Assembly: GCA_021798955.1 (NCBI GenBank)
Contig: JAJZBK010000002.1
Location: forward strand, 15,650 to 79,649
Direction of reading: 5' to 3'
Source of the DNA: Actinomycetes bacterium
GTDB taxonomy: Bacteria > Actinomycetota > Acidimicrobiia > Acidimicrobiales > RAAP-2
DNA length: 64,000 nt
Part shown: positions 31,948 to 63,616 of the stretch, piece by piece
How positions within the stretch are numbered: the first letter of the stretch is position 1
Layout of the letters: every line of letters begins with the position of its first letter
Translations under genes and position numbers: made by a program
The notes under the pieces: generated by a model
The model's database searches: none
What the model was told of the DNA's origin: nothing
What the model saw: only the letters and a program-made list of their open reading frames with translations

Positions 31948-32022
31948 GCCCTCGTAGCTCAGCGGATAGAGCATCGGCCTCCGGAGCCGTGTGCGCAGGT
32001 TCGAGTCCTGCCGAGGGCGCCA
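31948..32022 (+). tRNA. tRNA-Arg (anticodon CCG), CCA encoded
   Basis: Hand-folded cloverleaf. The acceptor stem is gccctcg/cgagggc, the D-arm gctc-agcggata-gagc, the anticodon loop cuCCGga and the T-arm gcagg-ttcgagt-cctgc. The discriminator is g, followed by cca. Confidence 0.9.
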
Positions 32023-32092
32023 CATCCGCTACCAGCGTCTTCATCAGGTTGGACCTCCACGGCGCGAACCACTACGCCGTACAGTGGTTCTC

Positions 32093-32293
32093 GTGCAGTT
32101 CACGGCAGCGGTCACGCACGAGGGTGGGTGGTACGTTGCGCGCGCCCTGGAGGTCGAGGTGACCAGCCAGGGACGGACGGTCGACGAGGCCTTGGCGAAC
32201 TTGCGGGAAGCGCTCGAGCTGTATTTCGAGGACGAGACCATGCCCGAGGTCGTCGAACCTCCCATCATCGCGACGGTCCAGCTGTCGGCGTGA
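32093..32293 (+). CDS. hicB: HicB-family antitoxin
   Basis: VQFTAAVTHEGGWYVARALEVEVTSQGRTVDEALANLREALELYFED has the typical HicB N-terminal fold. An alternative GTG is at 32084. The stop overlaps the hicA start. Confidence 0.75.
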   Translation: MQFTAAVTHEGGWYVARALEVEVTSQGRTVDEALANLREALELYFEDETMPEVVEPPIIATVQLSA

Positions 32294-32508
32294 GCCCGGC
32301 ACTGCCGGTCGTCGGTGGTGCCGACGTCATCGCCGCCTTGTCCAAGGCCGGTTTCGTGCAGGTGAGTCAGCGAGGCAGCCACGTCAAGCTCCGAGGCGGC
32401 GATCGAACGGTCATCGTGCCGATGCATCGGGAGCTTGCGACCGGCACCCTCCGCTCGGTGCTCAGACAGGCGGGTCTCACGCCCGCGGAGTTCTTCGCGC
32501 TTCTCTGA
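32290..32508 (+). CDS. hicA: HicA-family mRNA-interferase toxin
   Basis: 72 aa reading ...VIAALSKAGFVQVSQRGSHVKLRGGDRTVIVPMHRELATGTLRSVLRQAGL, which is YcfA/HicA-like. It has a GTGA overlap with hicB. Confidence 0.8.
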   Translation: MSPALPVVGGADVIAALSKAGFVQVSQRGSHVKLRGGDRTVIVPMHRELATGTLRSVLRQAGLTPAEFFALL

Positions 32509-32867: not shown

Positions 32868-35606
32868 CTACACCGACGCCTTACGGACGTCCACGCGGAT
32901 CATGCGGTCGAACTGCACGGGCTGCCACTGGTTCGGCGTGAAGCGCAGGTGGCCCCAGCCGTCGGCCAGGTGCAACCACTTGACCATGCCGGGCTCGATC
33001 ACCGTGCCGTCGTACCAGCCGGCGAACCCGTACGGCTCCCAGGCGGCGTACAGGACGACCTGGCCCGGGCGCGGTCCTGGCGCGACCCGCGCGTGCACGG
33101 TGAAGGAGCCGAGGTCGTTGCGGACCTCCACCTCGTCGTCGTCCGCGATGCCGAGCGCTGCAGCGTCGTTGAGGTTGATCACCAGTGTCGGGTGGCCCCG
33201 TGTCGTCTCGAGCATGAGGGGGTTGGTGGCGTTGCAGGCATGGATGGACCAGCGGGGGTGCCCGCCGGTGAGCACGAACGGGTGGTCGCCGCCGTGCGCA
33301 GGTGCGTCCTTGTGGACGGGCAGCTCCTCGCCAGCCTCGAGGAACCACGGGTGGTCGACGTAAAAGGTCGCCCGGCCCGTGGTGGTGGCGTACGGCACGC
33401 CGTCCTCCACGTGCCAGCGAAAGGCGCTGAAGGTCTCGTCTGCCCGCAGCTCGGACCCGATGAGCCGGCCCGCTGGGAACACGCCATTGCCCTGCGCCGG
33501 TGCGAAGCCCCGCTGGCGCAGGGTCGTGAGCGACAAGTCCTCGCTGAACACGCCGGACAGGGCGCTGTCGCGCACCAACACGTCGAGGAGCGCCTCGTCC
33601 GATCGCAGCCTGCCGTCACGGTGCATGACCTTCCCGACGTCGCCAAGCGGGTGGGGAGCAGCTCGGCCGACGACCCGGTCGGCCATGCCCCGGGCCCGGG
33701 CCCGGTCGGCCACGGCGTCGGCGATGTCGCAGAAGATCTGCCAGTCCGAGCGGGCCTCGCCTGCCGGCTCGTGCACCTTGTCCGAGAAGGCCAGGTCGAG
33801 CGAGTGGGCGATGGGGTACTGCAGGTTGACCCGCTCGGCGTCGTAGGCGGCCGGCAGCAGCAGGTCGGCGTGCAGGCCCGCGCCGTTCATGCGCTGGTCG
33901 ACCGACACCACGAGCTTGAGCTCGGGCCACAGGTGCCGCAGCAGCATCCGCCGGCCGCCGCGGGTGCGGCGCAGTGTGCTCGTGCCCGGTTGGAACAGCA
34001 CTCGCGGGGTGCAATCCGGCGCGGGACGCAGGTATGGCGCCCACGACCGGCGGGCCTCGGCGATGTACTCCGCCATGGGCCGGGGGGAGCCGCCCCACGC
34101 CGGGTTGCTCCAGATGTCGCCGTAGCCGCAGTGGTCCAGCCAGTAGAAGAATGGCGGCGTGGTCGTGCTCGTGGCCGCCGCCGTCGACATGAGATCCCAG
34201 AAGGCCGGCCGGGGTAGCGGCGGCGGCACCCCCGTACCCGGATCGGGCTCGCCGAAGAGCATCCTCGCCATCGAGAACACCGCCTCGGCACCCTCGATCC
34301 CGCCAGTGCTCATCTGCTGTACGAGCGAGCCGTCGAAGGGCATCACCGCGTACGTGTCGTGTCCCCGGCCCTGACCGCCCCAGTTGCCGGTCAGGGCGAG
34401 CAGCAGGTCCATCGACCGTTCCATCAGGTCGCCGTGGTAGTGCTTGGGGGTGTCGAAGCCCTCCACGATCTTGGTGCGCTTGGCCGCCACCTTGCGTGCG
34501 AGCATGCGGATCGTGTCGGGGTGCACCCCGCAGATCGCCGAGGCCGCCTCCGGCCCGTACGCCTGCAGGCGCTCGACCAGCAGCTCGAACGCCGGCGTGA
34601 CCTCGACGGCTGTCCCGTCCTCCAGCCTGACGGTGAACCGGCCCCAGAGCGCTGGCGCGAATGACAGCCGCAGCGTGTCGTCGCGAGCCTCGACGGCACC
34701 AGACGCCGGGTCCCAGTGGAAGAACCCGAGCTCGCTGCCTCCCTCGGCCAGGTCGGCCTGGCGGAGCAGTCGGCGCGTGTCGGTGCGCACCAGCAGGGAC
34801 AGGTCCGTCTGAGACGAGACGAACGCCTCGTCCATCAGCCCCTCGTCGACGACCACCCTGCACATGCCGAGCGCCAGCGCGGCGTCCGCGCCCGGGGCGA
34901 CCGGTACGAAGTAGTCGCAGTGCGGCGCCGAGGGGCTGTAGTCGGGGGCAATGAGGGCCACCTCGGCCCCGTGGTACCGCGCCTCGGTTAGGTAGTGGAA
35001 GTAGGGGATGCGGGTGTACGCCGGGTTGCAGTGCCACACGAGCACCAGCTCAGCGTGGAAGGTGTCGTCGGAGGCCGAGCCTCCGGCGATGTGGCCGTAC
35101 GTGACGTAGTGGCCCAACAGGACGTCGTTGACGGTGGAGATGCTGTCGAGCGACACGGCACCCAGGGCGGCCGCCAGCCCCATGTGGCCGGCGATCGACA
35201 GCATGCCGCCCTCGGCGCTCTCGTCGACCACCACCGCATCGGGCCCGGACTCCTCGATGGCGTCGAGCACGGCGTCGGCGACCTGGGCGAGCGCCTCATC
35301 CCACGAGATCTGCTCCCACCGTCCCGAGCCGCGCTCCCCCACCCGACGCATGGGGTGCAGTAGGCGGTCCTCACCGGTGAGCTGGCGGCTCCAGGCGGTG
35401 CCCTTCTGGCACCCCATGGGGTTCCGGTCGGGCACGCCGGGCTGCGTCGGAGGGTAGACGCCGGCCTGCTCCTCCCACAGCACCGCGCTGTCCGCCGCGA
35501 ACACTCGGTAGGTGCAGCTCGACAGGCAGTTGGTGCAGTGCGTGCCCCAGGCGACGCGTTCCCACGAGAAGCGCTGGCGGTAGCGTTGCTCGCTCGACGA
35601 GATCAT
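32868..35606 (-). CDS. Type-II DMSO-reductase-family molybdopterin oxidoreductase, orphan alpha paralogue 3
   Basis: The ATG at 35606 has AAGGAG 6 nt upstream, giving 912 aa. FS0 motif WGTHCTNCLSSCTYRV (H-x3-C-x3-C), then NPMGCQKG, and the NarG-D222-equivalent context TVNDVLLGH. There is no twin-arginine signal. Confidence 0.85.
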   Translation of the reverse strand: MISSSEQRYRQRFSWERVAWGTHCTNCLSSCTYRVFAADSAVLWEEQAGVYPPTQPGVPDRNPMGCQKGTAWSRQLTGEDRLLHPMRRVGERGSGRWEQISWDEALAQVADAVLDAIEESGPDAVVVDESAEGGMLSIAGHMGLAAALGAVSLDSISTVNDVLLGHYVTYGHIAGGSASDDTFHAELVLVWHCNPAYTRIPYFHYLTEARYHGAEVALIAPDYSPSAPHCDYFVPVAPGADAALALGMCRVVVDEGLMDEAFVSSQTDLSLLVRTDTRRLLRQADLAEGGSELGFFHWDPASGAVEARDDTLRLSFAPALWGRFTVRLEDGTAVEVTPAFELLVERLQAYGPEAASAICGVHPDTIRMLARKVAAKRTKIVEGFDTPKHYHGDLMERSMDLLLALTGNWGGQGRGHDTYAVMPFDGSLVQQMSTGGIEGAEAVFSMARMLFGEPDPGTGVPPPLPRPAFWDLMSTAAATSTTTPPFFYWLDHCGYGDIWSNPAWGGSPRPMAEYIAEARRSWAPYLRPAPDCTPRVLFQPGTSTLRRTRGGRRMLLRHLWPELKLVVSVDQRMNGAGLHADLLLPAAYDAERVNLQYPIAHSLDLAFSDKVHEPAGEARSDWQIFCDIADAVADRARARGMADRVVGRAAPHPLGDVGKVMHRDGRLRSDEALLDVLVRDSALSGVFSEDLSLTTLRQRGFAPAQGNGVFPAGRLIGSELRADETFSAFRWHVEDGVPYATTTGRATFYVDHPWFLEAGEELPVHKDAPAHGGDHPFVLTGGHPRWSIHACNATNPLMLETTRGHPTLVINLNDAAALGIADDDEVEVRNDLGSFTVHARVAPGPRPGQVVLYAAWEPYGFAGWYDGTVIEPGMVKWLHLADGWGHLRFTPNQWQPVQFDRMIRVDVRKASV

Positions 35607-36017
35607 GCGGGCTCCTTGGCCGGGTCCCCCGATGCTCTCACGGGAGCTCGGCCGGCATCGACAACAACTGGAGAACGCCTCGATCCGCGCTCGAGCCCGG
35701 CCCTGGCCGTGCCGGCGTGCTGGTCGTGGCGGACACGCGGGCACACGAGAGGCGGGGTTGGACACCGTCGGTGATCGCCAGCGGTGAGGCATCGGCCGGT
35801 GCTGCGGACAGCCGTGGCGGCCTTCTCGCCTGCAGGTGGAGCGGCACTTGCTCGGCCCGGTGGTTCCGACCCGGCGGCACGTGGGCCTGCACCCGTCCGG
35901 TCAGCCACGTCAGGGAGTGCGGCTGCGTCGGAGGGTGGCCTGGCCCTGCCGGCACAGAGGCCCAGCGGAGCGGCCGCCGTGACCGATGGGGTGAGGCCCA
36001 CGTGCCGGACCTGCACC

Positions 36018-36191
36018 GTCCCGCCGAGGGGGGCACTCGCCGACGACTGACGCACATGGGTCGACGGCTGGAACGAGAACCCCACGCCCTTCGTGTGGCA
36101 CAAGACCGCAGACCAGATGCTCGAGCGCCTTGCCGGCTCTGGCGGCGCCACCAACCAAGGGGGGTGGACATGCCGGTGCCAGCCGCCGTGA
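36018..36191 (+). pseudogene. IS630-family transposase C-terminal remnant
   Basis: Reads ...RGALADD*RTWVDGWNENPTPFVWHKTADQMLERL, the conserved IS630 C-terminal block xWNExxxPFxWTKTADeIL, with an in-frame TGA and no upstream DDE region. Confidence 0.6.
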
Positions 36192-36355
36192 CCCGTGCCG
36201 TCACCGGGTGGCAGCCGTCCAGCCCGACCCTGGTCGAGGACCTCGACGCCGGCCGGCTTGCAGGGTCGACCGCCTGACCGGCCGAACCTGGCGGCCACCT
36301 GGCCACGCGGCCGCTTCCCGCGGGTCGGACCACCCGCCCTCCTACGGCCGGGGCG

Positions 36356-36958
36356 TCATCGGGTGCCCGGCACCGGCCGCCGGTGGTAGAGGACCCCCTC
36401 CAGTGCGGCCAGCGACCCGGGCGGCGCCGGGTACGCCATCGGGTAGGACGACCGTGCCTGGCCCCCCAGGCCGTGGTCGTCGGTGGCCGAGCACCGTGCG
36501 GTGGCCCGTTCCAGGACGTCGAGGACGATGGCGATGAAGGCCACCTCGTCGGCCGGTTCGGCGTCGAGAAGGGAACGGGCCGCCGACGTCGCCGCCGCCA
36601 TCGAGGCCTGGTGGGCCTGCCACAGCGCCGCCTGGTCGTCACCGACAGCCGCTCCGACGTACGACGCCCACGCCCGGGCCGCGCCGGTGAGCTCGGCGTC
36701 CGCGCCGACCGTCACGTCGACCACGTCCAGCACCATGAGCCCGTTCACCGCCTTCCACCAGCGTGAGCCCGACGGCCCGTCCGCTACCCGGCCGCTCGTC
36801 ACCTCCCACTCGAGGAAGTCGGACAGTGCGGTGCCGAGCCCCAGGCCGGTGCGCCCGGGCCCCGGGTGGGCCGTGAAGAACGCGGCGAAAGCCTGGCGGC
36901 GGTCGTCCACCGCCAGCCCGATGGCCGCCTCCAACCGGTCTGCTTCGTTCCTCACCAT
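36356..36958 (-). CDS. Hypothetical 200-aa protein (last gene of the Mo-enzyme operon)
   Basis: The in-frame ATG at 36958 has GGGGAG upstream, 65 nt after the preceding gene. No motif was recognised. Confidence 0.5.
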   Translation of the reverse strand: MVRNEADRLEAAIGLAVDDRRQAFAAFFTAHPGPGRTGLGLGTALSDFLEWEVTSGRVADGPSGSRWWKAVNGLMVLDVVDVTVGADAELTGAARAWASYVGAAVGDDQAALWQAHQASMAAATSAARSLLDAEPADEVAFIAIVLDVLERATARCSATDDHGLGGQARSSYPMAYPAPPGSLAALEGVLYHRRPVPGTR

Positions 36959-37023
36959 CACCGTCTCCCCGGCGACGTCACCGCCGGCTCCGGGTGCGGC
37001 GCCAGCAGGACTGCTCCCCGGGC

Positions 37024-38238
37024 TCACGGATCGACCAGGTAGAGCATGCCGTTGGGGTCGGAGGCGGCCAGCACGCCGGTGGCGAACCGCCGGCCCGCCG
37101 GCGCCCCCGGCCCCGGCGGGAACCCAGATAGGGCCAGTGCAGGCGACCATGCCGACACCATGGCGTGGTCGAGGAGCTCCCACATGACGTCGATGGGCTC
37201 GCCGGTGTCGGGGTCGGCCGGCAGCACGTGCATGTTGGGGACCGGGATGCCCGCCGGCTCGTCCAGGAACCAGCTCGGGTGGGCGGCGATGACGGGGCCG
37301 ATCTCCCCCATGCCGAAGAGCGTCAGCGCCCCACCCCCGGCGGCGGCGCCCACGCTGCGCCGCTCGTCCGGGTCGAACGGGCCGTCCACCGTGGCCACCA
37401 GCCACCGCCCCGGCACACCCTGGCTGCGGCGGCGACGCCCGCCACCGCCCGACCACGTTCGCCCGGCGTCCTCCAACGAGGCGGTGATCCACCCGGGCTG
37501 GTAGCGCTCGGTGGCCTCCACCGCACCGTCCCCAGCGACCGCCGCCACCACCGGGCACCCCGCCGCCAACGCACCCACGACCACGGCCAGGCCGTCCCAC
37601 GAGCACGGCGACTGCAGGACCAGCCACGCCGAACCCGGCTCCGGCTCGAAGAACGACGGGACGACCAGCGCGCCGGCCAGCAGCGACCGCTGCGAGTGCC
37701 ACACCGGCCCGGACGACCCGGACAGGCACACGCGCTCGTCTCTCAGGGAACCGGCCCCCGCTGCCGGCGTCTCATCCAGAGCCGTCGGCGGCTCGTCACC
37801 CACCTCGAGCACGGCCACGCCCGCGGCGGAAAGCAGGTCGGCACCCTCGGCGTCGCACAACCCGAAATCGGGCCGGGCTGCCTCAAGCACGGCCCGGGCG
37901 CGGTCGTCGTCGGCTGCGGCCAGGGCGACCCGTCGACCCGACGCCAGGGCACCGAGCACGGCCACGACCCCGGCAGCCCCGGGCCCGGCCGCCACCGCCA
38001 CCGCACCCTCGGGGCTCACCACGTCACGCACGGCCGACGCGGTGGCCGCCACCCGAGCGGCCAGCTCGGAGGCGGTCAGGTCGGCACCGTCGTCACCCGA
38101 CAGAGCGGCGTCCTGCGGACGTCGACGGGCCGGCCCGTCCACGGCCAGCGCGGCGACCGGCACGGGGGGCACCCCGAACACGCGGGGCACGGTGTCTGGC
38201 CAGTACCACGACGGTGTGGTGGCGATGGTCTTCGGCAT
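37024..38238 (-). CDS. Degenerate adenylate-forming (ANL/acyl-CoA-synthetase-like) N-domain protein
   Basis: 404 aa from the ATG at 38238 (TGATG overlap with the upstream stop). LSGSSGPVWHSQRSLL resembles the (T/S)SG(T/S)TGxPKG P-loop but lacks the Lys. No C-terminal ANL subdomain is present. Confidence 0.5.
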   Translation of the reverse strand: MPKTIATTPSWYWPDTVPRVFGVPPVPVAALAVDGPARRRPQDAALSGDDGADLTASELAARVAATASAVRDVVSPEGAVAVAAGPGAAGVVAVLGALASGRRVALAAADDDRARAVLEAARPDFGLCDAEGADLLSAAGVAVLEVGDEPPTALDETPAAGAGSLRDERVCLSGSSGPVWHSQRSLLAGALVVPSFFEPEPGSAWLVLQSPCSWDGLAVVVGALAAGCPVVAAVAGDGAVEATERYQPGWITASLEDAGRTWSGGGGRRRRSQGVPGRWLVATVDGPFDPDERRSVGAAAGGGALTLFGMGEIGPVIAAHPSWFLDEPAGIPVPNMHVLPADPDTGEPIDVMWELLDHAMVSAWSPALALSGFPPGPGAPAGRRFATGVLAASDPNGMLYLVDP

Positions 38239-38723
38239 CAGAGCGAGGCTCCCGGGCCGGATCCGTGCGGCCACGCGGCCACCAGCGCCCCCACCAGCGC
38301 CACACCCAGCTCGATCCGCAGGAGCACGTCCATCACCCGGATCGACCGCATCCGGCGTCGCTTCAGCTCGGCCCGGTCCTCACCGGGTTCGATGCGGGCG
38401 TGCGACCGGGGATGGACGAGGAGGCCCATGACCGTCACCAACGACGCCAGCACCACCCAGGCGGCCCCGAGGGCGAGCCACCGGGCCACGGACAACCGAC
38501 CGGGACCGCCGGTGGCCTGCCACGCCACGCATGTGGCGGCGATGGCGACCAGCGAGGCGATGGCCAGCCACCGGTAGCGGCGCCCCATGACGTTGCACAG
38601 GACGCCCGTCTGGCCGGGGGGGACGTAACGTTGCAGCGGGCGCCAGACCAGCTCCATGAACAGGGCACCGCCCACGTACACGGCCCACTCGATGGTGAAC
38701 ACGTAGCCGAGCGCGGTGTGCAT
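38238..38723 (-). CDS. 4-TM membrane protein, paralogue B
   Basis: 161 aa. It shares the AVYVGG..(F/A)ME(L/F)V...Q R(Y/F)VPP.Q..VL block with the upstream paralogue. It has 1-nt overlaps (TGATG) at both ends. Confidence 0.6.
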   Translation of the reverse strand: MHTALGYVFTIEWAVYVGGALFMELVWRPLQRYVPPGQTGVLCNVMGRRYRWLAIASLVAIAATCVAWQATGGPGRLSVARWLALGAAWVVLASLVTVMGLLVHPRSHARIEPGEDRAELKRRRMRSIRVMDVLLRIELGVALVGALVAAWPHGSGPGASL

Positions 38724-39256
38724 CAGAGGATCCCGTTCCCGTAGGCGAGGGAGGCGCCCAGCAGGACCACGACCAGGGCGATGACGAGGTCGGCCCGGGT
38801 CAGCCAGGACACCCGGCGGGCAGCCACCTGCATGGCCTCGACCTGCTCGCCCACCCGAGCACCACCGCCTCGTCCACTGGCCTTGGCCGCCAGGCGGGGC
38901 CGGTACACGAAGGTGATGACCGAGCCGTTCACCACCAGCACGGCCCACAGGACCATCATGGCCAGCAGGGTGCGCCCCGAGCCGGTAGTGAAGATGTCGC
39001 CGCTCGACACCAGGTTCTGGTCCGACAGGGAGAAGAAGAGCAGCATGCCGCTGACGGGCAGCAGGGCGAGCGAGGACCACACCAGGACCAGGAACCGGTC
39101 GGCCGACTTCTGGGCCAGCACCTGGGCCTGGGCCGGGGGGACGAAGCGCTGTGCCGGACCGAGGACGAACTCCATGGCCACCGACCCGCCGACGTAGACG
39201 GCCACCGCAAGGAGGTGGAGGTAGGAGGCGAGAACCTGGACCCACGTGGCCGTCAT
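38723..39256 (-). CDS. 4-TM membrane protein, paralogue A
   Basis: 177 aa with four hydrophobic segments. It has an ATGA overlap with the upstream gene. Confidence 0.6.
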   Translation of the reverse strand: MTATWVQVLASYLHLLAVAVYVGGSVAMEFVLGPAQRFVPPAQAQVLAQKSADRFLVLVWSSLALLPVSGMLLFFSLSDQNLVSSGDIFTTGSGRTLLAMMVLWAVLVVNGSVITFVYRPRLAAKASGRGGGARVGEQVEAMQVAARRVSWLTRADLVIALVVVLLGASLAYGNGIL

Positions 39257-40728
39257 GCGTGCCTCTCCCCTCCGGTGGCGGCTCCGGGATCGGGCTGCCC
39301 CGCGTGCCAGGTGGCGAAGTGGTCCTCGATGGCGGGAGTGAGGCCGTCGGCACCGCCGTCGGGGATGAAGTACCGATGGTAGAAGCCGGTGTCGACGTGG
39401 TGGACCTGGACGGAGAGCTTGGCCCGCACCGGGTTGACGTACGCGGGGCAGCACCCGTGCTTGGCCACGATGTGCTCGACGGTGGCGATGGCCGCCTCCT
39501 CGGCCCAGTCAGAGAGGTGGGCACGGGGGTGGGCGCGCACCTCGTCTGCCACCTCCGGACGCCACGGGTCTGGGGCGCCGTCGAGGGCGCCGCCGGGTCC
39601 CTCACGCAGCGACCGGACGTAGCGCACGGCAGAAGCCGCGTCGGGGAAGCGGGGGGAGGGCACCATGACCGGCTCGAACACACCGGCCAGCCCCTGGCAC
39701 GTGGAGGTCTTCGCCGGGTTGGTGGCAGGGTCGCGCTCGAGGAACGAGAAGCCCAGCCCGGGCGAGATCTCCGGATAGGCACCGAGGAGGAAGTCGTCGG
39801 CGTACGACCCCGTGGCCCACGCCCCAAGCCCGAGCGCTTCGCACGCCAGGCGGATGTTCTGGACCATGCAGCCGACCTGGCCGGTGTGGAGGAGGAGGGC
39901 CAGCTCGTCGAAGGCGGGGATGGGGAAGCCCACCTCGAGGAAGCCGGGCCGGATCCACTCCTCGCACCCGGCGGGGTCGCCGGTGTCGGGGTCCTGGAGG
40001 TAGAAGCCGGACCACTCGTAGGAGACGAGGAGCTGGTTGAACCACTCGAGGCCCACGTCGCCCACGGGCACCAGCCACGTGCTCCCCGGCCGGTTCAGGT
40101 TGTACTGGCCCGCCCCCATCGGCCGGACGTTGTGGGTGGCCTCGGGGGCTCCCGGCCAGGCCACGTCGGGGCGGTGGTCGAGGACCTGGACCCGCCCGGC
40201 CCGGTACCACTCGAGGATCCTGCCGTAGTCCTCGGGGCCCCGGATCTCGACGGGTCGGGGCGGATCGGGCTCCGGCCGGTAGGCCCACACGCCGCTGTCG
40301 TCGATGACGAACAGGTCGACGCCGAGGTCACCGGAGGACGACGGGACCGTCCGCCCCCGGCGGTGGAGCATGCCGGCCAGGGCGCCCTGCACGGGGATGT
40401 CGGCCAGGGCCATGCCGTTGGGACCAGCGGCGACCCAGCACAGCAGGGCGGCCTCCGTCTCGGACAGCGGGACGGGCGATGCCGCGGACGCGTAGGCGAA
40501 GGGCCCCTCGGGCTGGGTGGCGGTGCGGTCTCCCGACCAGGAGAACGCCTCCTCCTCCCCCGTCTCCGCCCGGTAGCCGAGGCCCATGCGGCGGGTGCGG
40601 ACGGTGGCGAGCAGTTGGAACAGCGTTGGGGTCGAGGTGAAGGCGGCCGCCACCTCCGAGGGATCGCCCGCTCCGGTCGGTGCCGGCCCGCTGCCGGCGT
40701 CGTCGCCGGCCCGTCGCGAGAAGATCAT
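39253..40728 (-). CDS. Nitroreductase-superfamily (SagB/ThcOx-like) protein
   Basis: 491 aa. VRTRRMG resembles the RRSxR FMN motif, VPSSSGDLGVDLFVIDDSGVWAYRPE resembles SagB PSAGxxYPxExY, and VQNIRLACEALGLGAW is the nitroreductase QN..LAA.ALGLG motif. It has an ATGA overlap with the alpha-2 stop. Confidence 0.6.
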   Translation of the reverse strand: MIFSRRAGDDAGSGPAPTGAGDPSEVAAAFTSTPTLFQLLATVRTRRMGLGYRAETGEEEAFSWSGDRTATQPEGPFAYASAASPVPLSETEAALLCWVAAGPNGMALADIPVQGALAGMLHRRGRTVPSSSGDLGVDLFVIDDSGVWAYRPEPDPPRPVEIRGPEDYGRILEWYRAGRVQVLDHRPDVAWPGAPEATHNVRPMGAGQYNLNRPGSTWLVPVGDVGLEWFNQLLVSYEWSGFYLQDPDTGDPAGCEEWIRPGFLEVGFPIPAFDELALLLHTGQVGCMVQNIRLACEALGLGAWATGSYADDFLLGAYPEISPGLGFSFLERDPATNPAKTSTCQGLAGVFEPVMVPSPRFPDAASAVRYVRSLREGPGGALDGAPDPWRPEVADEVRAHPRAHLSDWAEEAAIATVEHIVAKHGCCPAYVNPVRAKLSVQVHHVDTGFYHRYFIPDGGADGLTPAIEDHFATWHAGQPDPGAATGGERHA

Positions 40729-43541
40729 CGGTCGACTCCTCCTCCCGCCGGGACTGCGGCGACCTCGACGAACACCGCCCGGTCGGCGGGGACCGGCTGC
40801 CACCCGAACGGTAGGTAGCGCAGGTGGCCGTACTTGCCCACCAGGTGCAGCCACTTGACCATGCCCGGCTCGACCTCGTTCGCGCCCTCCCACCGGCGGA
40901 ACATGTGCGGCTCGAAGCCGTTGTAGACGATGACCTGCCCGGGCCGCACCCGCCCGGTGACCCGCACCATGGCCTCGAAGGCGCCGTGGTCGTTGGACAC
41001 CCGCACCTTCTCGCCCTCTGCCACGCCGCGGGCGGCGGCGTCCTCCTCGCTCATCACCACCAGAGGGCGTCCCCGGTGGGTGCCGAGCAGGTGGCGGTTG
41101 CCCATCCCGATCGAGTGGACCGTCCAGCGCGAGTGGCCGCTGGTGAGGACGAGGGGGTACTCGCCCCCCATGCGGGGCGGCTCCTTGTGGGTGGGGAGCT
41201 GCTCCCCCGCCTCGAGGAACCACGGGTGGTCGATGTAGAACTGGGCCCGCCGGGTCAGCGTCGGGTAGGGCAGGTGCTGTTCGACGTGCCAGCGGAACGC
41301 CGTCATCACCTCGTCGTCACGCACGTCGGCCGCCACCGACAGACCCGGCGCGAAGGTGCCGAGCCCGGTGAAGCGGATGCTCCCGTCGCGGCGCAGGCGC
41401 TCGACCGAGCTACCCGGCGGCAAGGTGCCGGCGTCGGCCGAGTCGCGCACCCACTCGTCGAGGACCATCTCCTCACCCGACAGCTGGCCCCCGAGGTCGA
41501 AGTCCTCCCCCAGCCGGGCGGCGTGGCGGGTCTGGCGGCGGGCGTCGTCGTACTCGTCGAGCCCGACAGCGACGGCCCGCTCGGCGATGGTCCGGGCGAG
41601 CGCGGAGAAGATCTCCCACTCGGTGCGGGCCTCGCCCCGCGGTGGGGTGGCCGCGTCGGAGAAGGCCAGCCGCAGCATGTGGGTGATGGGGTACTGGACG
41701 TTGACCCGCTCGTACTGCATGGCCGCCGGGAGCACCAGGTCGGCCTGGAGGGCGGTGGCCGACATGCGGAAGTCGACCACCACCACCTTGTCGAGCTTCG
41801 GCCACAGGGTGTCGACCAGTTTCGCCCGCCCGCCCCGGGCACGGCGCATGGGGTTCGTCCCCACGGTGAAGAGCACCCGCGGGGGGGTCGACGCCCCCGG
41901 CCGAGCCACCCCGCCCCACCAGCCACGACGGAGGGCGTCCCGCAGGTAGTCGCCGAACGGCTTGGTCATGGTCGGATCCGACCACTCCGGCCGGTTCCAC
42001 GTCTCGTCGTAGCCGGCATGGTGGTAGTTGAAGAACACGGGCGGCGCCGCGGTCCCGGAGCTGGTGGCCAGGGCGAGCAGCTGGTTCCCGAGCATTTCGT
42101 CGGTGGCGTCGGGATCGCGCTTGCGCATCTGGGCCATGGCCTGGTCGATGCCGTCGAGCACCCGGGCCGTCTCCTCCACGCCCGGGCGCGTCTTCATCGA
42201 GAACAGCAGGTAGCCGTCCAACCCGGCCAGGGCCAGGCCCTGGATCCCGGTGCCGGGTCGGCCCCAGTTGCCGGTGAGGGCCAGCACCAGGCACATGGAG
42301 CGCTCCATCAAATCGCCGTGAAAGTACTTCGGCCCGTTGAAGCCCTCGAGGATCTTGACCCGCCGCCCGGCGACCAGGTGGGCCAGCCGGCGGATCGTGG
42401 ATGCGGGCACGCCGCAGATGGCGGCGGCGTCCTCCGGCGCGTAGACGCCCAGGTGGCGGCGGAGCAGGTCGAGGACGGTGACCACCTCCACCTCGGTGCC
42501 GTCGGCCAGCGTGACGGTGAAGGGGCCCTCGAGCACCGGGTCGAGCGTGCCCAAGTCGAGCGTGCCCCTGGGGGCGGCGGTCAGGCCGCCGGCCCGGTCC
42601 CACAGGTGGAAGGTCTCCTCGTCGCCGCCCGCCCGGAGGTCTCGCTGGCGCAGGTAGCGGCCGGTGTCGCTCCGCACCAGCAGCGGCAGGTCGGTCTGGG
42701 TGAGGACGAACTGGCGGTCCCACAAGTCCTCGTCGAGCACCACCCGGCACATGGCGAGGGCGAGGGCGGCGTCGGTGCCGGGCCGGACGGGGACGTAGAG
42801 GTCGGAGCCGACGGCCGATGCGTTGTAGTCGGGGGCGATGGCCACCACCTGGGCGCCCCGGTAGCGGGCCTCGGAGATGAAGTGGTGGTACGGGATCGAC
42901 GTGTAGGCCGGGTTCGAGTGCCACAGCAGGAGCACGTCGGCGAGGAAGGTGTCGTCCACCGTGCTGGCACAGGAGAACTTGCCGAAGGTCAGGTGCTGGC
43001 CGGTGGGGAGGTCGTTGACCAGCCCGTTGGCGTCGAGGGTGACGGCGCCGAGGAGGGCGGCCAGGCGGAGGAACGGCGCCTGGGCCAGCAGGCCGCCCTC
43101 CACGCTCTCCTCGAACACCACCGCTTCTGGGCCGTCCTCGTCGAGGACGGCAACGACCGCCTCGGCCACCTCGGCCAGCGCCTCCTCCCAGGTGATCTGC
43201 TCCCACTTCCCGCTACCCCGCTCCCCCACCCGGCGCAGTGGGTGGAGGACGCGGTCCTCGCTCGACAGCTGGGCGCTCCACGCCCCGCCTTTCTGGCAGC
43301 CGAGCGGGTTCATGTCGGGCACGCCGGACGCCACCGGGTCGATGGTGCCGGCCTGTTCCTCGAACGCCACCTCGCCGTCCCGGCTGAACACCCGGTACGG
43401 GCAGCCAGCCAGGCAGTTCAGGCAGTGGGTGCCCCAGGTGACGCGCTCCCACGTCCACCGGGACCGGTAGTCGTCCGCGGTGGCTCCCGTTCCCGGCCGG
43501 TCGCCCGCGCTCGCCGGGGGTGCGGCGTCGCCCTCACCCAC
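40725..43541 (-). CDS. Type-II DMSO-reductase-family molybdopterin oxidoreductase, orphan alpha paralogue 2
   Basis: The in-frame GTG at 43541 overlaps the chaperone gene by 8 nt, giving 938 aa. Motifs are WGTHCLNCLAGCPYRV, NPLGCQKG and LVNDLPTGQH. There is no Tat signal. The 1437-aa ORF in the track is a read-through artefact. Confidence 0.85.
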   Translation of the reverse strand: MGEGDAAPPASAGDRPGTGATADDYRSRWTWERVTWGTHCLNCLAGCPYRVFSRDGEVAFEEQAGTIDPVASGVPDMNPLGCQKGGAWSAQLSSEDRVLHPLRRVGERGSGKWEQITWEEALAEVAEAVVAVLDEDGPEAVVFEESVEGGLLAQAPFLRLAALLGAVTLDANGLVNDLPTGQHLTFGKFSCASTVDDTFLADVLLLWHSNPAYTSIPYHHFISEARYRGAQVVAIAPDYNASAVGSDLYVPVRPGTDAALALAMCRVVLDEDLWDRQFVLTQTDLPLLVRSDTGRYLRQRDLRAGGDEETFHLWDRAGGLTAAPRGTLDLGTLDPVLEGPFTVTLADGTEVEVVTVLDLLRRHLGVYAPEDAAAICGVPASTIRRLAHLVAGRRVKILEGFNGPKYFHGDLMERSMCLVLALTGNWGRPGTGIQGLALAGLDGYLLFSMKTRPGVEETARVLDGIDQAMAQMRKRDPDATDEMLGNQLLALATSSGTAAPPVFFNYHHAGYDETWNRPEWSDPTMTKPFGDYLRDALRRGWWGGVARPGASTPPRVLFTVGTNPMRRARGGRAKLVDTLWPKLDKVVVVDFRMSATALQADLVLPAAMQYERVNVQYPITHMLRLAFSDAATPPRGEARTEWEIFSALARTIAERAVAVGLDEYDDARRQTRHAARLGEDFDLGGQLSGEEMVLDEWVRDSADAGTLPPGSSVERLRRDGSIRFTGLGTFAPGLSVAADVRDDEVMTAFRWHVEQHLPYPTLTRRAQFYIDHPWFLEAGEQLPTHKEPPRMGGEYPLVLTSGHSRWTVHSIGMGNRHLLGTHRGRPLVVMSEEDAAARGVAEGEKVRVSNDHGAFEAMVRVTGRVRPGQVIVYNGFEPHMFRRWEGANEVEPGMVKWLHLVGKYGHLRYLPFGWQPVPADRAVFVEVAAVPAGGGVDR

Positions 43542-44193
43542 CGAGCCGCTCGGCCACGTAGGCGCGGTCGGCCGACACGAACGCGGCCAGCTGGTCCAGC
43601 GTCCACCCCACCAGCGGCCCGGCACCGCGTCCGGCCGACGCCACCAGGCCAGGGACCCAGTCGAGCACGTGGGCGTCGAGGAAGTCCCGCTGGGCCCGGC
43701 GGAACGAGGTGGCCAGGCGGGGCGACGGCGTGGCCGCCTCGCGGAAGCACAGGTACTGGAGGAAGTCGAGCTCGGTGGCCAGGTGGTCGGCCGGGCGGGG
43801 TGCGGCGTCCGATGCAGCCAAGCCGAAGTACTCGTACTCCCGCCGCACGGCGGCGATCTCCGCCTCCCGGTCGGCCCGGCCGCCCCCGCCCAGGAGGGCG
43901 CCGCCGCCGAGGACCCGCTCGTGGTCAGCGGCGAACGATGCCGCGTCGGCGCCGGCGGGGACCTCCACCGGCCCGATGGCGAAGCCGAACGGCAGCAGCG
44001 ACGCCGCTTCGGTGAGGCCCGCCACCCACTTGCCCTCGGCCGCCTGGTCGAAGAGATCTGCCGGTGCGGTGGCGAACCAGCCGCCGAAGAACTGGTACAC
44101 GGCGCTGCGGGCCGTGGTCTCGTTCTCCTCCACCTCGATGGGGCCGGCCTCGGCCGCGCTGAGCTCGAGCCCCTGGAGCGAGTAGGTGAACAT
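43534..44193 (-). CDS. TorD/NarJ/EbdD-like redox-enzyme maturation chaperone (delta)
   Basis: 219 aa. The EYEYFG...DHLATELDFLQYL block is typical of TorD-family chaperones. Confidence 0.8.
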   Translation of the reverse strand: MFTYSLQGLELSAAEAGPIEVEENETTARSAVYQFFGGWFATAPADLFDQAAEGKWVAGLTEAASLLPFGFAIGPVEVPAGADAASFAADHERVLGGGALLGGGGRADREAEIAAVRREYEYFGLAASDAAPRPADHLATELDFLQYLCFREAATPSPRLATSFRRAQRDFLDAHVLDWVPGLVASAGRGAGPLVGWTLDQLAAFVSADRAYVAERLGG

Positions 44194-44197
44194 GGCG

Positions 44198-45301
44198 TCA
44201 CTCCCCTTCCGTCGCTCCGGCCCTGGTCCGACCCAGCTGCACGGCCACCCGTTCCGGTGACCGATCGAGGCCGGCCGGATCGACCGTGTACGGGCCGAAC
44301 AGGTCGTGCCACCGGTAGACGATCAGCGTGTCGAGCAGTTCCGAGGTGCCGCCCGACCGTACCGTCGCCATCTCGTCCCGAAGGGTGTCGAGCGCAGCGT
44401 GGACGCGGGGTCCGAACAGCGACTCGAGGTACTCGGGCGGGATCCGCGGCGTCTCCTCGTCGACGGAGAAGTCGTCGTGCAGTCGGTAGGGCGAGAGGGG
44501 CGGCACATAGAAGATGTTCGGGCCCGTCCCGTACTCCTCGTGGAGAGGCAGCGCCACCTTCCACTCGTGCACCAGCCGGTGGATGGGGCCAGCCGGATCG
44601 GCGGCGTCGCCCACGAACACCAGACGCCCCGGGCACTGGCGGGCACAGGCGGGGGCCACTCCCTCCTCCAGCCGGGGGAAGCAGGCGATGCAGTGCTGGC
44701 TGACGCCCCGGACGTAGTTGAAGGAGATCTTCTTGTAGGGACAGGCCTCCATGCAGAAGCGTGCGCCCTGGCAGACGCTCTCGTCCCGGAGCACGATCCC
44801 GTCCTCGTGGCGCTTGTACATGGCGCCCGACGGGCAGGCCGACACGCACACCGGACGAGTGCAGTGGTTGCACAGCCGGGGCAGGTAGAAGTAGTAGGAG
44901 TTCGGGTAGGTCCCGCCCCCCTGGTCCTCGTCCCAGTTCATCCCCCACCGGGTGGTGCCGTCCCCCCGGTCGACGGGCTGGAGGTGGGCGTCGCGGCCCC
45001 GGCCGCCGAAGAGCACCTCCTGGTAGTTGAAGTCCCACCCGCCGCCGAACTCGGCACGGGTCGGCTGGTGGCCGGGCACGGGGGTGTCGTCACGCCACCC
45101 ACCCCCCATGTCCTCCCACGCCTTCGGGGTGCCGAGGCCGGGCTGGGTGTTCACGCTCATCCACCACTGGTGCTCCTCCCCCTCCTCGCGGGTCCACAGC
45201 ACCTTGCAGGCCACCGAGCACGTCTGGCAGCCCATGCACTTGTTGAGGTCGAAGACCATGGCCAGCTGGCCGGCCGCCCCCTGCTGCGTCATCGTCTGCA
45301 C
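44198..45301 (-). CDS. Type-II DMSO-reductase-family Fe-S beta subunit (EbdB/NarH-like)
   Basis: 367 aa with four cluster motifs: CMGCQTCSVAC, CNHCTRPVCVSACP, CQGARFCMEACPYKK (3Fe-4S type) and CIACFPRLEEG...CARQCPGR. Confidence 0.9.
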   Translation of the reverse strand: MQTMTQQGAAGQLAMVFDLNKCMGCQTCSVACKVLWTREEGEEHQWWMSVNTQPGLGTPKAWEDMGGGWRDDTPVPGHQPTRAEFGGGWDFNYQEVLFGGRGRDAHLQPVDRGDGTTRWGMNWDEDQGGGTYPNSYYFYLPRLCNHCTRPVCVSACPSGAMYKRHEDGIVLRDESVCQGARFCMEACPYKKISFNYVRGVSQHCIACFPRLEEGVAPACARQCPGRLVFVGDAADPAGPIHRLVHEWKVALPLHEEYGTGPNIFYVPPLSPYRLHDDFSVDEETPRIPPEYLESLFGPRVHAALDTLRDEMATVRSGGTSELLDTLIVYRWHDLFGPYTVDPAGLDRSPERVAVQLGRTRAGATEGE

Positions 45302-45335: not shown

Positions 45336-45956
45336 TCATGCCTGCACCGCCGACCACTCGCTGCTCACCGCTCCGATGCCCGCCCGCTCCTCGTTGGCAC
45401 CGTTCCACACGGCCACCGCCACCCGGCCGCGGTCGCCCAACGCCGAGCGGGGCCCGGTCAGCACCACCGACCATCGGATGCCGTCCACCGACGACGCCGC
45501 GTCGAGGCTGGCGCCGTCGGGAGCGGGGCGGAACATGCCCGGGCCGGTGGAGACCAGGTGGCGGACGGCGGGCATGCCCTTCTGGATGGGGAGCCGGTCA
45601 CGCCACTGCCACACCAGGACGGGCGACGTGTGGTCGCCCATGGTCACCGGATCGGCCGGCCCATCCCCCTGAGGGAAGAGGACGGCACAGGCGTCGGGGA
45701 ACTCCCCCGCGATGGGCCCCGAACCGTCCCACTCCAGACGCATCAGCAGGCGGTCGCCGTGAGTGGCCACCGAGACGGAGGCCGACGGCGTGGCGCCGTA
45801 GGGGCGGTCGCGCCAGGCCGCCCGGACGTAGGCGTTCCGCTGGGCGTCGACGGGCACCGGGACGAGAGGCACCGTCACCGGTGGGGCCGCGGCCCACGCC
45901 GGGTCGTCCGGTGCCAGTGCCTCGGCGCCCAGCTCCAGCGCGGTCAGGTCGGTCAC
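45336..45956 (-). CDS. EB_dh-like gamma subunit (putative heme-b subunit), no signal peptide
   Basis: 206 aa. Size and blocks (LLMRLEWD, VAVAVWNGANEERAG..SSEW) resemble EbdC/SerC/DdhC. GTGA overlap with the alpha-1 stop. Confidence 0.7.
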   Translation of the reverse strand: MTDLTALELGAEALAPDDPAWAAAPPVTVPLVPVPVDAQRNAYVRAAWRDRPYGATPSASVSVATHGDRLLMRLEWDGSGPIAGEFPDACAVLFPQGDGPADPVTMGDHTSPVLVWQWRDRLPIQKGMPAVRHLVSTGPGMFRPAPDGASLDAASSVDGIRWSVVLTGPRSALGDRGRVAVAVWNGANEERAGIGAVSSEWSAVQA

Positions 45957-50579: not shown

Positions 50580-50926
50580 GCAGTGCTCCCCTCGCCGAGG
50601 ATGTGGTCGACCGTGTCCCGGAAGACCTTCCAGTAGTCGATAAAGCTCGCCAGCGATCGCTCCCCCGCCTCGGTGATGCGGTAGTAGCGGCGGGGCGGGC
50701 CGGCCGTGGACTCCTGCCACGTGGTCTCCACCAGACCGTTGCGCCGTAGGCGGGCCAGGAGCGGATAGATGGTCCCCTCGCTGGCGATCAGCCCATCTGC
50801 ACCGGCAAGGATCCGAGCGAGGTCGAAGCCGTACCGCTCACCCTGGTGAAGCAGGGCCAGAACGCAGTGCTCGGCGGTGCCTCGGCGAAGCTGCGCCACC
50901 CACGGGACCTCATCGCCAGGTACCAT
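50576..50926 (-). CDS. PadR-family transcriptional regulator
   Basis: 116 aa from the ATG at 50926 with a winged helix (HCVLALLHQGERYGFDL...GTIYPLLARLRRNGLVE...RRYYRITEAG). Confidence 0.85.
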   Translation of the reverse strand: MVPGDEVPWVAQLRRGTAEHCVLALLHQGERYGFDLARILAGADGLIASEGTIYPLLARLRRNGLVETTWQESTAGPPRRYYRITEAGERSLASFIDYWKVFRDTVDHILGEGSTA

Positions 50927-51161
50927 GCACCATAAGCTAGTGGAGGTTACCGAGTCTGCCAAAAGGCGTCTGCGGCACCGGCGTCCACCGTGGGCCACCA
51001 CCTCGCCCGGTGGCCGCAACGGGCACAACAGAGCCGGAACGACCCCAGGGGCTTCTGCGCCACACCTCCGGTCACGTCCGCCAGCACAGATCCGGTCCTC
51101 GACACCGATCGAGCCGTCTCGAGGACTTCAGAAGTGGCGACGGGATGCCGATCCCACCCCC

Positions 51162-58209: not shown

Positions 58210-58210
58210 G

Positions 58211-58630
58211 TCAGCGGTCGTCCAGCAGCTCGCCAAACCGGCGTTCCAACTGCTCGGCCCGCCGTACGTACCAGAAGCCGAGCGCCACGAGCGGCGGGTA
58301 GATCCCTCCCCCCAGCACCACGAGCGTGAGCGGGACCCCGATGACCTGGTCGCGACCAAGACCTGGGACCAACACGGCCAACAGGGGGTAGAGGGCGAGG
58401 AGGAGGACTGCCGGGCCGAGCACGCTCACCGTCGCCCCCAACTGCGCTCGTATCAACGAACCGAGGAGGGCACGGCCGTACTCGTCGCGACGCAGGAGGT
58501 CATCGCCTCCCGGGACGCCGGTGCGGTCGATCGTCCCTCGGGTCGGGGCCCGCACCGCCTGGCGCACGGGCGCCCCGTCCGGTCGAGGGGTGACGCCCGC
58601 CGGGACGGGTGGGACCGGTGGAGCGGTCAC
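58211..58630 (-). CDS. DUF485 (YjcH-like) membrane protein
   Basis: 139 aa with two TM segments, immediately upstream of actP as in yjcH-actP operons. Confidence 0.75.
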   Translation of the reverse strand: MTAPPVPPVPAGVTPRPDGAPVRQAVRAPTRGTIDRTGVPGGDDLLRRDEYGRALLGSLIRAQLGATVSVLGPAVLLLALYPLLAVLVPGLGRDQVIGVPLTLVVLGGGIYPPLVALGFWYVRRAEQLERRFGELLDDR

Positions 58631-60587: not shown

Positions 60588-60594
60588 GATCTCC

Positions 60595-60624
60595 TTACCA
60601 CTGGCACCGTTACCACTGGCACCG
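60595..60624. repeat. 15-bp perfect tandem duplication (ttaccactggcaccg x2)
   Basis: Directly upstream of, and overlapping, the kinase SD sequence. Confidence 0.8.
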
Positions 60625-60936
60625 TTCCGGTGCGGGCGACGACCGCCCACAGCGGCGAGGCGCCCCCCCGTCAGGCGAGCTCGACGTGCTGGCCAGCATG
60701 CCACAGCGGCCTCCGCAGCACTCGACCATCGCTTGGTCCTGCTCCCGGGCGCTTCCGGGCTCCCGTCGAGCCGGTGCCCTGCCTCCCCTCGCCGGTCGCC
60801 CGTTCGTCGAGCCCTACCGACCGCTCGTCGTGCGCCCCCAGCCGCTCGAAGACTTACCGGTCAGTGTCCTTGCCAGTGAGCGCTGCCCTCTGCACCATCG
60901 CGAGAGAAACGCTGTACACCCAGGGGAGGGAACTTC

Positions 60937-61545: not shown

Positions 61546-61624
61546 TCCCGCCCGCCACCGGCCGACCACACCGCTGCTCGATCGAATCACATCCCAGGGC
61601 GACCCTGGGGGAAGGACGACCACG

Positions 61625-63616
<1,992 letters not shown>

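Follow-up and report, generated by a model that had tools for sequence, protein, structure and literature searches.

We analysed a 64-kb window of DNA from a bacterium of the class Acidimicrobiia (64,000 nucleotides, positions 15,650 to 79,649 of contig JAJZBK010000002.1 in GenBank assembly GCA_021798955.1; G+C content ~71%) that encodes several molybdenum (Mo) enzyme catalytic subunits of the type II dimethyl sulfoxide (DMSO) reductase family. Unless another locus is named, counts and coordinates refer to this window, and all genes of the finding lie on its minus strand. According to Pfam and NCBIfam, the window encodes three alpha subunits of this family, all of them full-length (alpha-1, alpha-2 and alpha-3, hereafter a1, a2 and a3), along with one gamma, one beta and one delta. 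An earlier note on this DNA, made from the sequence alone, had described three alphas with a single partner set, in agreement with our inventory: neither a2 nor a3 has a beta or gamma gene of its own beside it.

The first gene of the operon, a1 (45953..48799), starts with GTG and encodes a 948-aa catalytic subunit of the Mo-bis(pyranopterin guanine dinucleotide) type, which is matched by TIGR03479 over its full length (818 bits) as well as by PF00384 and PF01568. It is followed by gamma (45336..45956; 206 aa), a subunit of the ethylbenzene dehydrogenase (EBDH) type (PF09459, TIGR03477), and by beta (44198..45292; 364 aa), a four-cluster Fe-S subunit that covers positions 3-320 of the 321 in TIGR03478 (447 bits) and also matches PF13247; four Cys groups are seen in its translation, and its open reading frame (ORF) is open also from a GTG at 45301. 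Next come delta (43534..44193; 219 aa), a maturation chaperone of the NarJ/TorD type (PF02613, TIGR03482), and the second catalytic subunit, a2 (40725..43541; 938 aa, GTG start; TIGR03479 829 bits, PF00384, PF01568). Downstream of a2 lie X (39253..40728), a 491-aa conserved protein with a predicted tandem nitroreductase fold of the flavin mononucleotide (FMN) kind; the CopD-like membrane protein C1 (38723..39256; 177 aa; PF05425, E 4.8e-9); its paralogue C2 (38238..38723; 161 aa), a membrane protein whose orthologues give weak CopD matches; and an AMP-binding-like protein (37024..38238; 404 aa; PF00501, E 1.9e-9) that consists only of the N-terminal domain of the acyl-CoA synthetase/adenylation domain/luciferase (ANL) superfamily. 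The last gene, H200 (36356..36958), encodes a 200-aa hypothetical protein without a Pfam match.

Gamma starts within the last 4 nt of a1, and delta begins 4 nt after beta. The GTG start of a2 at 43541 lies inside the delta stop region with an overlap of 8 nt (GTGGGTGA), as the earlier note had observed, and an independent gene call on an identical contig returned the same start. The start of X overlaps the stop of a2 by 4 nt, C1 overlaps X by another 4 nt, and the C1/C2 junction and that between C2 and the AMP-binding-like gene overlap by 1 nt each. Because the gene junctions overlap in this way (4, 8, 4, 4, 1 and 1 nt), a1-gamma-beta-delta-a2-X-C1-C2-AMP-binding-like-H200 form one tightly packed, translationally coupled operon. 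The third alpha, a3 (32868..35606; 912 aa; TIGR03479 784 bits over the full length, PF00384, PF01568), stands alone. It starts with an ATG at 35606 that is preceded by AAGGAG at a spacing of 5 nt, just as had been read from the sequence before.

All three alphas align with TIGR03479 from end to end (model positions ~42-913) with scores below its curated cut-off of 984.75; by this measure they are clear relatives of the family, outside its curated core. Their best solved relative is the ethylbenzene dehydrogenase subunit EbdA (2IVF_A, E 5e-219; identity 36-39%), with perchlorate reductase and NarG scoring far lower, and in the EbdA equivalog model NF042978 they reach 643-748 bits, below the cut-off of 2000. 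For residue comparisons EbdA served as the only reference, its sequence being rebuilt from PDB alignments. In the resulting alignment the equivalents of EbdA His82, Cys86, Cys92 and Cys127, which ligate the Fe-S cluster FS0, are present in all three alphas, and so are those of the Mo ligand Asp223 and its partner Lys450. The motifs that had been singled out in a2 and a3 (HCLNCLAGC and HCTNCLSSC, NPLGCQKG and NPMGCQKG, LVNDLPTG and TVNDVLLG) are present and align with the FS0 ligands and with Asp223. One His and three Cys form the pattern of the FS0 [4Fe-4S] cluster (PMC8840923), and a role in holding the Mo-ligand Asp has been described for the Lys (PMC6153880). The comparison covered 33 orthologues of a1, 119 of a2 and 37 of a3, and in every full-length sequence among them the FS0 ligands and the residues numbered Asp223, Lys450 and Asp455 in EbdA are invariant; a few a2 sequences that are truncated have gaps at these columns. 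The ratio of nonsynonymous to synonymous substitution rates (dN/dS), calculated against the nearest orthologous loci, was 0.15 for a1 (against locus L009), 0.13 for a2 and 0.18 for a3, which indicates purifying selection. Thus a2 and a3 are intact and look functional.

The column of the catalytic His192 of EbdA is a gap in all three clades, and in enzymes of the steroid C25 dehydrogenase (S25DH) type the equivalent of this residue is likewise absent (PMC6153880). The comparison of the active-site region that the earlier note had suggested found three positions fixed differently in a1, a2 and a3: EbdA position 200 (V/Q/I), position 479 (R/Q/D) and position 485 (M/G/P). Position 224 also carries clade-specific residues. 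Because these positions adjoin the active site and are fixed per clade, they argue for different substrate pockets, not redundancy, among the alphas.

The full-length pairwise identities are about 46% for a1/a2, 45% for a1/a3 and 50-51% for a2/a3, so that a2 and a3 are the closest pair. The estimate by eye that the N-terminal regions are half to two-thirds identical was borne out as well (58-64% over the first 110 aligned residues). We considered this N-terminal conservation as a possible sign of a shared beta (56-63% over the first 105 residues versus 44-48% elsewhere) and dropped it: against EbdA, too, conservation is highest in this stretch (42-45% versus 35-39%), which therefore does not discriminate. 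In a distance tree the a1 clade (n=33), whose members are always directly 5' of gamma-beta-delta, is separate from the a2 clade (n=55), whose members are always 5' of X. Both are old, distinct orthologous lineages, with a linkage conserved in uncultured Acidimicrobiia, Chloroflexota and Proteobacteria.

To place a2 among its relatives we used 67 loci (L numbers) that were obtained from the contexts of a2 and from a scan of species-representative genomes with X. All of them are metagenome-assembled genomes (MAGs); no cultured organism was found among the 67 loci. Orthologues of a2 with 60-96% identity occur in MAGs of Acidimicrobiia, Chloroflexota, Gammaproteobacteria and Kiritimatiellia, compared to the 46-50% by which a2 resembles a1 and a3. 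In all 61 loci where the sequence permits a call (Acidimicrobiia, Chloroflexota and Proteobacteria), an alpha of the a2 clade lies directly 5' of X, and two CopD-like membrane proteins followed by a truncated adenylation-like protein are encoded downstream. The designation of a2 as an orphan paralogue therefore had to be given up: to judge from its orthologues, it is no local duplicate, and it belongs to an old orthologous lineage heading an a2-X-CopD-CopD-AMP module. When the window proteins were mapped onto the loci, the order a1-gamma-beta-delta-a2-X-C1-C2-AMP-binding-like recurred across phyla. The a1-gamma-beta-delta set usually adjoins the a2 module, with delta-a2 directly after gamma-beta in most loci; in some Acidimicrobiia (L003, L022) the order is a2-X-C1-C2-AMP-binding-like-a1-gamma-beta-delta, and in two loci (L061, L062) genes for gamma, beta and delta are missing from the ~10 kb around the a2 module. 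H200 follows the AMP-binding-like gene mainly in loci of Acidimicrobiia and Actinomycetota; a Dehalococcoidia locus gave a single match, weak and inverted. Literature searches returned no description of the cluster, nor of cytoplasmic EBDH-like enzymes in Acidimicrobiia or Chloroflexi.

Some loci carry further subunits. Right after the AMP-binding-like gene and in opposite orientation, the Chloroflexota loci L005, L028, L030, L032-L050 and L066-L070 hold a second set, alpha'-gamma'-beta'(-delta'), complete and divergent, whose alpha' is ~35-39% identical to a1 and a2, differs in its FS0 spacing (HTRVNCISAC) and has no twin-arginine translocation (Tat) motif. In the gammaproteobacterial loci L006, L052, L054 and L057, the AMP-binding-like gene is followed by a DUF3237 gene and then by an extra beta-delta-alpha without gamma, and two a1-type alphas stand in tandem upstream, giving totals of four alphas, two betas, two deltas and one gamma. 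In Candidatus Amarobacter glycogenicus (L005, 4777-7628) the a1-type gene was called as two ORFs (320 and 649 aa) and beta as a shortened ORF of 234 aa, which reflects either a frameshift or pseudogene, or an assembly error.

Type II alphas carry an N-terminal Tat signal in the periplasmic members, that is, other than in NarG and the cytoplasmic Nxr. Upstream of FS0 we found no Tat (RR) motif in the window alphas and none in 117 alpha ORFs of the related loci; the TIGR03479 alignments of the alphas begin at model positions ~42-46, and gamma has no signal peptide. The system is thus a predicted cytoplasmic (Tat-less) relative of the branch of ethylbenzene and steroid C25 dehydrogenases. In gamma subunits of the EBDH type, Met and Lys serve as the ligands of haem b (PMC8840923). 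When gamma is aligned with 2IVF_C, Met108 and Lys201 of the latter fall on Met106 and Gly195 of the window protein. Core-operon gammas have Gly or Ala in the Lys column throughout and never Lys, so that the ligand of EbdC/NxrC is lost, and the Met column is Met, Leu or Ile, with Leu or Ile in about half of them; the gamma' of the second Chloroflexota set mostly keeps both TMG and the Lys. Canonical haem binding is therefore improbable for the core gamma. Since it has no canonical Lys ligand, X and C1/C2 become candidates for the electron exit.

X gave no match in Pfam, and its score with the SagB model TIGR03605 (19.4 bits) was below the cut-off of 78.4. An AlphaFold2 model built with 36 homologues (pLDDT, the per-residue confidence, 82; pTM, the global one, 0.86) retrieved the FMN nitroreductases 3hoi, 3hj9 and 8cqs with Foldseek (probability 1.0), along with the azoline oxidase ThcOx (8pz5, E 3.5e-4). 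From this model X appears to be a tandem nitroreductase-fold protein with two fused halves in ~490 aa, and its cofactor is probably FMN. The earlier description of X as SagB-like therefore stands at the level of the fold, which is common to X, to SagB, ThcOx, McbC and BmdC and to tandem nitroreductases such as 3eo7. It stands neither for the sequence, where similarity to SagB-type dehydrogenases is negligible, nor for the context: X is never beside a cyclodehydratase gene or a precursor gene of ribosomally synthesized and post-translationally modified peptides, and always beside a Mo-enzyme alpha. Orthologues of X are 52-95% identical across phyla, and one Actinomycetota MAG at NCBI encodes an X with 100% identity. 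A gene for CofD, of coenzyme F420 biosynthesis, recurs beside the cluster in five Acidimicrobiia loci (L014, L016, L026, L061 and L062), and the spread of F420 among bacteria resembles that of the cluster (Actinomycetota, Chloroflexota and some Proteobacteria). X could be linked to F420 rather than to FMN.

C1 and C2 each have four hydrophobic segments and have a YVGG..ME motif in common; His14, Met28, Glu29 and Met100 are conserved in C1 and Cys43, His104 and Met131 in C2. The match of the AMP-binding-like protein to PF00501 is weak (37 bits). ANL enzymes have a P-loop of the form (T/S)SG(T/S)TGxPKG and a C-terminal subdomain with a catalytic Lys. The chain of the AMP-binding-like protein ends at the hinge, so that the C-terminal subdomain is absent, and its P-loop is degenerate, with only Gly174 conserved in 45 orthologues. 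In the same orthologues the N-terminus (MPKTIATTPSWYWP..VPRV.GVPP) hardly varies, and SD.NGM.Y is conserved at the C-terminal end; a search against PDB sequences gave no match for this protein.

The orthogroup of a3 comprises ~37 clusters, mostly from Acidimicrobiia, with 56-89% identity, after which identity drops to ~53%. In four of four other contexts the a3-type gene is solitary, without an adjacent beta or gamma; the 89%-identical orthologue sits in an unrelated context, and at L077 the a3-type gene is fully isolated. We take a3 to represent a third, mainly acidimicrobial lineage that, as far as these contexts go, is normally stand-alone.

The region between a3 and the operon bears traces of rearrangement. 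In the closest relative of the operon, L008 (X 95% identical), no a3 follows H200, and a convergent 309-aa NAD-dependent epimerase, a TetR regulator and a cytochrome P450 are encoded there instead. Homology to L008 stops at position 36161 within the 3' end of the epimerase gene, of which a remnant (36161..36277, plus strand; ...TGWQPSSPTLVEDLDAGR...) corresponds to the C-terminus of the intact 309-aa protein. Next to it lies the insertion sequence scar mentioned in the earlier note, which proved real but small: 36051..36137 (plus strand) encodes a 29-aa transposase C-terminal tail, RTWVDGWNENPTPFVWHKTADQMLERLAG, that is 69% identical to the C-termini of annotated IS630 transposases from actinobacterial plasmids (tblastn with the 36-aa tail as query, E 8e-8). 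No transposase domain, DDE_3 included, was detected by Pfam in the ORFs and in the three plus-strand frames of 35607-36300, and no convincing terminal inverted repeats were found for the scar, which is thus a putative remnant and not an element. Because homology to L008 breaks inside the epimerase gene with the IS630 tail just beyond, a3 would have reached its present site by a rearrangement marked by this remnant and the truncated gene. On the 3' side of a3 and convergent with it, a tRNA-Arg(CCG) gene is directly followed by a HicB-like (DUF7387)/HicA toxin-antitoxin pair (together 31948..32508, plus strand; ARAGORN, Rfam; PF24113, PF07927), and together with the IS630 tail these genes look like a small rearranged or mobile patch. 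Repeats that would link the 3' end of the tRNA-Arg gene to the scar as an integration site were present only as chance-level matches, and scanning for promoters and terminators near a3 and the scar yielded nothing, which is uninformative at 71% G+C.

Alphas outnumber betas in most of the loci with a wide context: among 28 of these, the commonest alpha:beta:gamma:delta counts were 4:2:2:1 (9 loci), 2:1:1:1 (4) and 3:1:1:1 (4). On a 2.2-Mb Acidimicrobiia contig (L075 and L081, 1628665-1671639), an island of ~43 kb contains four alphas and one gamma-beta-delta set in the order a2-X-C1-C2-AMP-binding-like, a1-gamma-beta-delta, a further alpha and an a3-type alpha. The island also encodes two pairs of ChsH2/DUF35 and thiolase-like proteins, an enoyl-CoA hydratase, an acyl-CoA dehydrogenase, a short-chain dehydrogenase/reductase, a 3beta-hydroxysteroid dehydrogenase (3beta-HSD), a CoA ligase, three CtmAB/phytoene-desaturase-like flavoproteins, a luciferase-like monooxygenase and a radical SAM/SPASM protein, and looks like a locus for the breakdown of steroid or isoprenoid side chains; in L081 a gene for a 2x[4Fe-4S] ferredoxin adjoins the cluster. 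Among the loci, acyl-CoA dehydrogenase (23 loci), CtmAB-like FAD proteins (8) and thiolase (7) recur as neighbours, which suggests catabolism of lipids, isoprenoids or steroid side chains.

A precedent for an excess of alphas exists in Sterolibacterium denitrificans, which has eight alpha paralogues and fewer beta and gamma genes and for which sharing has been proposed (PMC6016249). There, S25DH and the steroid C26 dehydrogenase (S26DH) form a functional pair of different Mo hydroxylases that act in sequence (PMC7411048), and a CtmAB-like flavin desaturase acts before S26DH2 (PMC11061730). Like S25DH1-4 and S26DH1-2 of that organism, the system described here combines type II DMSO-reductase alpha, beta and gamma subunits with a delta chaperone, has more alphas than beta/gamma sets and has no His192 equivalent, and in related loci its neighbourhood includes genes for CtmAB-like proteins, acyl-CoA dehydrogenase, thiolase, ChsH2 and 3beta-HSD. 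In contrast, the Sterolibacterium enzymes are Tat-exported and periplasmic with a Met/Lys haem b gamma, no partner such as X, the CopD-like proteins or the AMP-binding-like protein is described for them, and the present system is hosted by uncultured members of the Acidimicrobiia, Chloroflexota and Proteobacteria. EbdABCD of Aromatoleum aromaticum (2IVF) is the best solved relative of both the alphas and gamma, with the same FS0 His/Cys3, Asp223 and Lys450 and with homologous beta, gamma and delta. It differs in that the scores obtained here are far below the EbdA/B/C/D equivalog cut-offs, His192 is deleted, Tat and the gamma Lys are absent, and several alphas occur in an alpha-gamma-beta-delta order that is not that of ebdABCD. 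NarGHJI, another type II enzyme that faces the cytoplasm, lacks a functional Tat signal, has a NarJ-type chaperone, passes its electrons to an integral membrane partner and may offer a functional analogy for C1/C2. NarG is a distant relative, however (~200-226 bits versus 730-830 for EbdA/TIGR03479), its system has a single alpha, and NarI, a di-haem cytochrome b, is no relative of CopD-like proteins.

Taken together, we favour a reading, with a probability of roughly 55%, in which the window encodes a cytoplasmic relative of EBDH and S25DH whose single gamma-beta-delta set for electron transfer and maturation serves several alphas. In such a system, delta would mature each alpha, and each would dock in turn on the single beta (with gamma), giving enzymes with different substrate pockets, as the clade-specific residues at EbdA positions 200, 224, 479 and 485 may indicate. 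By analogy to S25DH and S26DH, these enzymes might carry out water-driven, O2-free hydroxylation or dehydrogenation of successive or alternative intermediates that resemble lipids, isoprenoids or steroid side chains. Electrons would probably exit through other partners, for which the presumed flavoprotein X and the membrane pair C1/C2 are the best candidates, tied specifically to a2. In this multi-alpha system a2 belongs to the core, and a3, a stand-alone alpha, would plug in; the accessory proteins are new. The proposal of the earlier note that three alphas use one set fits the alpha excess, the 43-kb island and the Sterolibacterium case; the sharing itself is only consistent with these data. 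It is plausible by analogy, given that alphas outnumber betas as in Sterolibacterium.

Several points weigh against this reading. The Sterolibacterium alphas that have been proposed to share beta and gamma are 72-82% identical (PMC6016249), whereas a1 and a2 are only 46% identical and the three window alphas 45-51%. The strict linkage of a2 to X and the two loci in which beta, gamma and delta are missing near a2 fit a beta-independent a2 complex. The 64 kb seen are a part of the genome, so that further beta or gamma genes may lie elsewhere, and binding of a2 and a3 to this beta is proposed from sequence. The substrate class is proposed from gene neighbourhood, and the same subfamily also includes the oxyanion reductases SerA and ClrA.

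The most serious competitor, possible though rather doubtful in our view, holds that a2 bypasses the shared beta and gamma to form its own complex with X (FMN), C1/C2 and the AMP-binding-like protein, its FS0 electrons passing to the flavin and/or the membrane while a1 alone uses gamma-beta. The earlier note had raised partnership with the adjacent protein X as the alternative to sharing, and for a2 the linkage in 61 of 61 loci makes it at least as well supported as sharing. The 4-nt overlap of a2 and X in the window, the nitroreductase fold of X and the conserved His and Met residues of C1 and C2 all suit such a complex, as does the movement of the five-gene module as a unit, found 5' of a1-gamma-beta-delta in L003 and L022 and apart from the set in L061 and L062. 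Against this, known type II alphas pass FS0 electrons only to FS1 of beta (PMC8840923), delta-a2 follows gamma-beta directly in most loci and overlaps here, and X might just as well be another catalyst, for instance a desaturase, as an electron carrier. For a3, and perhaps a2, one may instead suppose that a dedicated beta and gamma are encoded elsewhere in the genome, or that the subunit works as a monomer together with ferredoxin or another soluble acceptor, its proximity to the operon being an accident of a rearrangement mediated by an insertion sequence. We regard this as unlikely. The rearrangement that brought a3 here, the unrelated context of its 89%-identical orthologue, the isolated gene of L077 and the ferredoxin gene of L081 would all be expected; yet a3-type genes are without beta and gamma of their own in four of four contexts, the 43-kb island on one long contig unites a3-type, a2 and a1 genes with a single gamma-beta-delta, and the retained FS0 implies an Fe-S partner.

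Multiple isoenzymes are known from S. denitrificans (PMC6016249), and a1, a2 and a3 might likewise be redundant forms that act on one substrate and are expressed under different conditions. We consider this improbable given that they are only ~45-51% identical, that the separate lineages are kept side by side across phyla and that the residues at EbdA 479 and 485 are fixed per clade; moreover, a1 and a2 belong to one operon and so cannot be regulated by different promoters. Least probable of all is that a2 and/or a3 are decaying duplicates. The insertion sequence scar upstream of a3 and the lack of beta and gamma genes of their own might have hinted at this, but disruption of the cofactor-binding segments, which the earlier note had named as a sign of pseudogenes, is not seen: the ORFs are full-length and uninterrupted, all cofactor ligands are retained, dN/dS is 0.13-0.18 and there are dozens of orthologues with 56-96% identity. 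We rejected the pseudogene reading on the strength of the intact cofactor residues and purifying selection.

Returning to the shared set, a more specific proposal can be put forward tentatively. The nine-gene unit from a1 to the AMP-binding-like gene may be an undescribed cytoplasmic Mo hydroxylase machine in which two catalytic subunits sit on one Fe-S wire and a flavoprotein and membrane route replaces the soluble haem exit. Independently of O2, it might hydroxylate C-H bonds in, or desaturate, isoprenoid, steroid or lipid intermediates inside the cell, which may be CoA-activated, with solitary alphas such as a3 plugging in to widen the substrate range. It would occur only in uncultured Acidimicrobiia, Chloroflexota and some Proteobacteria. 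To our knowledge, water-dependent, O2-independent hydroxylation of unactivated C-H bonds by enzymes of the EBDH/S25DH type has so far been limited to a few periplasmic enzymes of cultured denitrifying bacteria. The Tat-less version is conserved in abundant uncultured bacteria that belong to three phyla and live in soil, sludge, permafrost and the ocean, and the chemistry would, if the reading is true, be far more widespread and intracellular. The design would be modular, with one Fe-S core and several plug-in catalytic subunits, and for X, the CopD-like pair and a gamma without canonical haem ligands there is no described role with molybdoenzymes. New substrate specificities could also be of use, given that S25DH-type enzymes already serve to make 25-hydroxyvitamin D3 (PMC6016249).

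A search of the window with Rfam for a molybdenum cofactor riboswitch or other RNA returned the tRNA only. A 660-aa ORF at 10123-12105 (minus strand) has coding-like G+C at third codon positions and no Pfam match. Nearer to the operon lie genes for a GGDEF protein (50877-52946), an AlkB-like 2-oxoglutarate-dependent oxygenase and a peroxiredoxin, and at 56479-63616 a group that has no relation to the finding and resembles an acetate-utilisation locus encodes a sodium:solute symporter, a LytTR response regulator with a His kinase, a GPR1/FUN34/YaaH channel and an acetyl-CoA synthetase.

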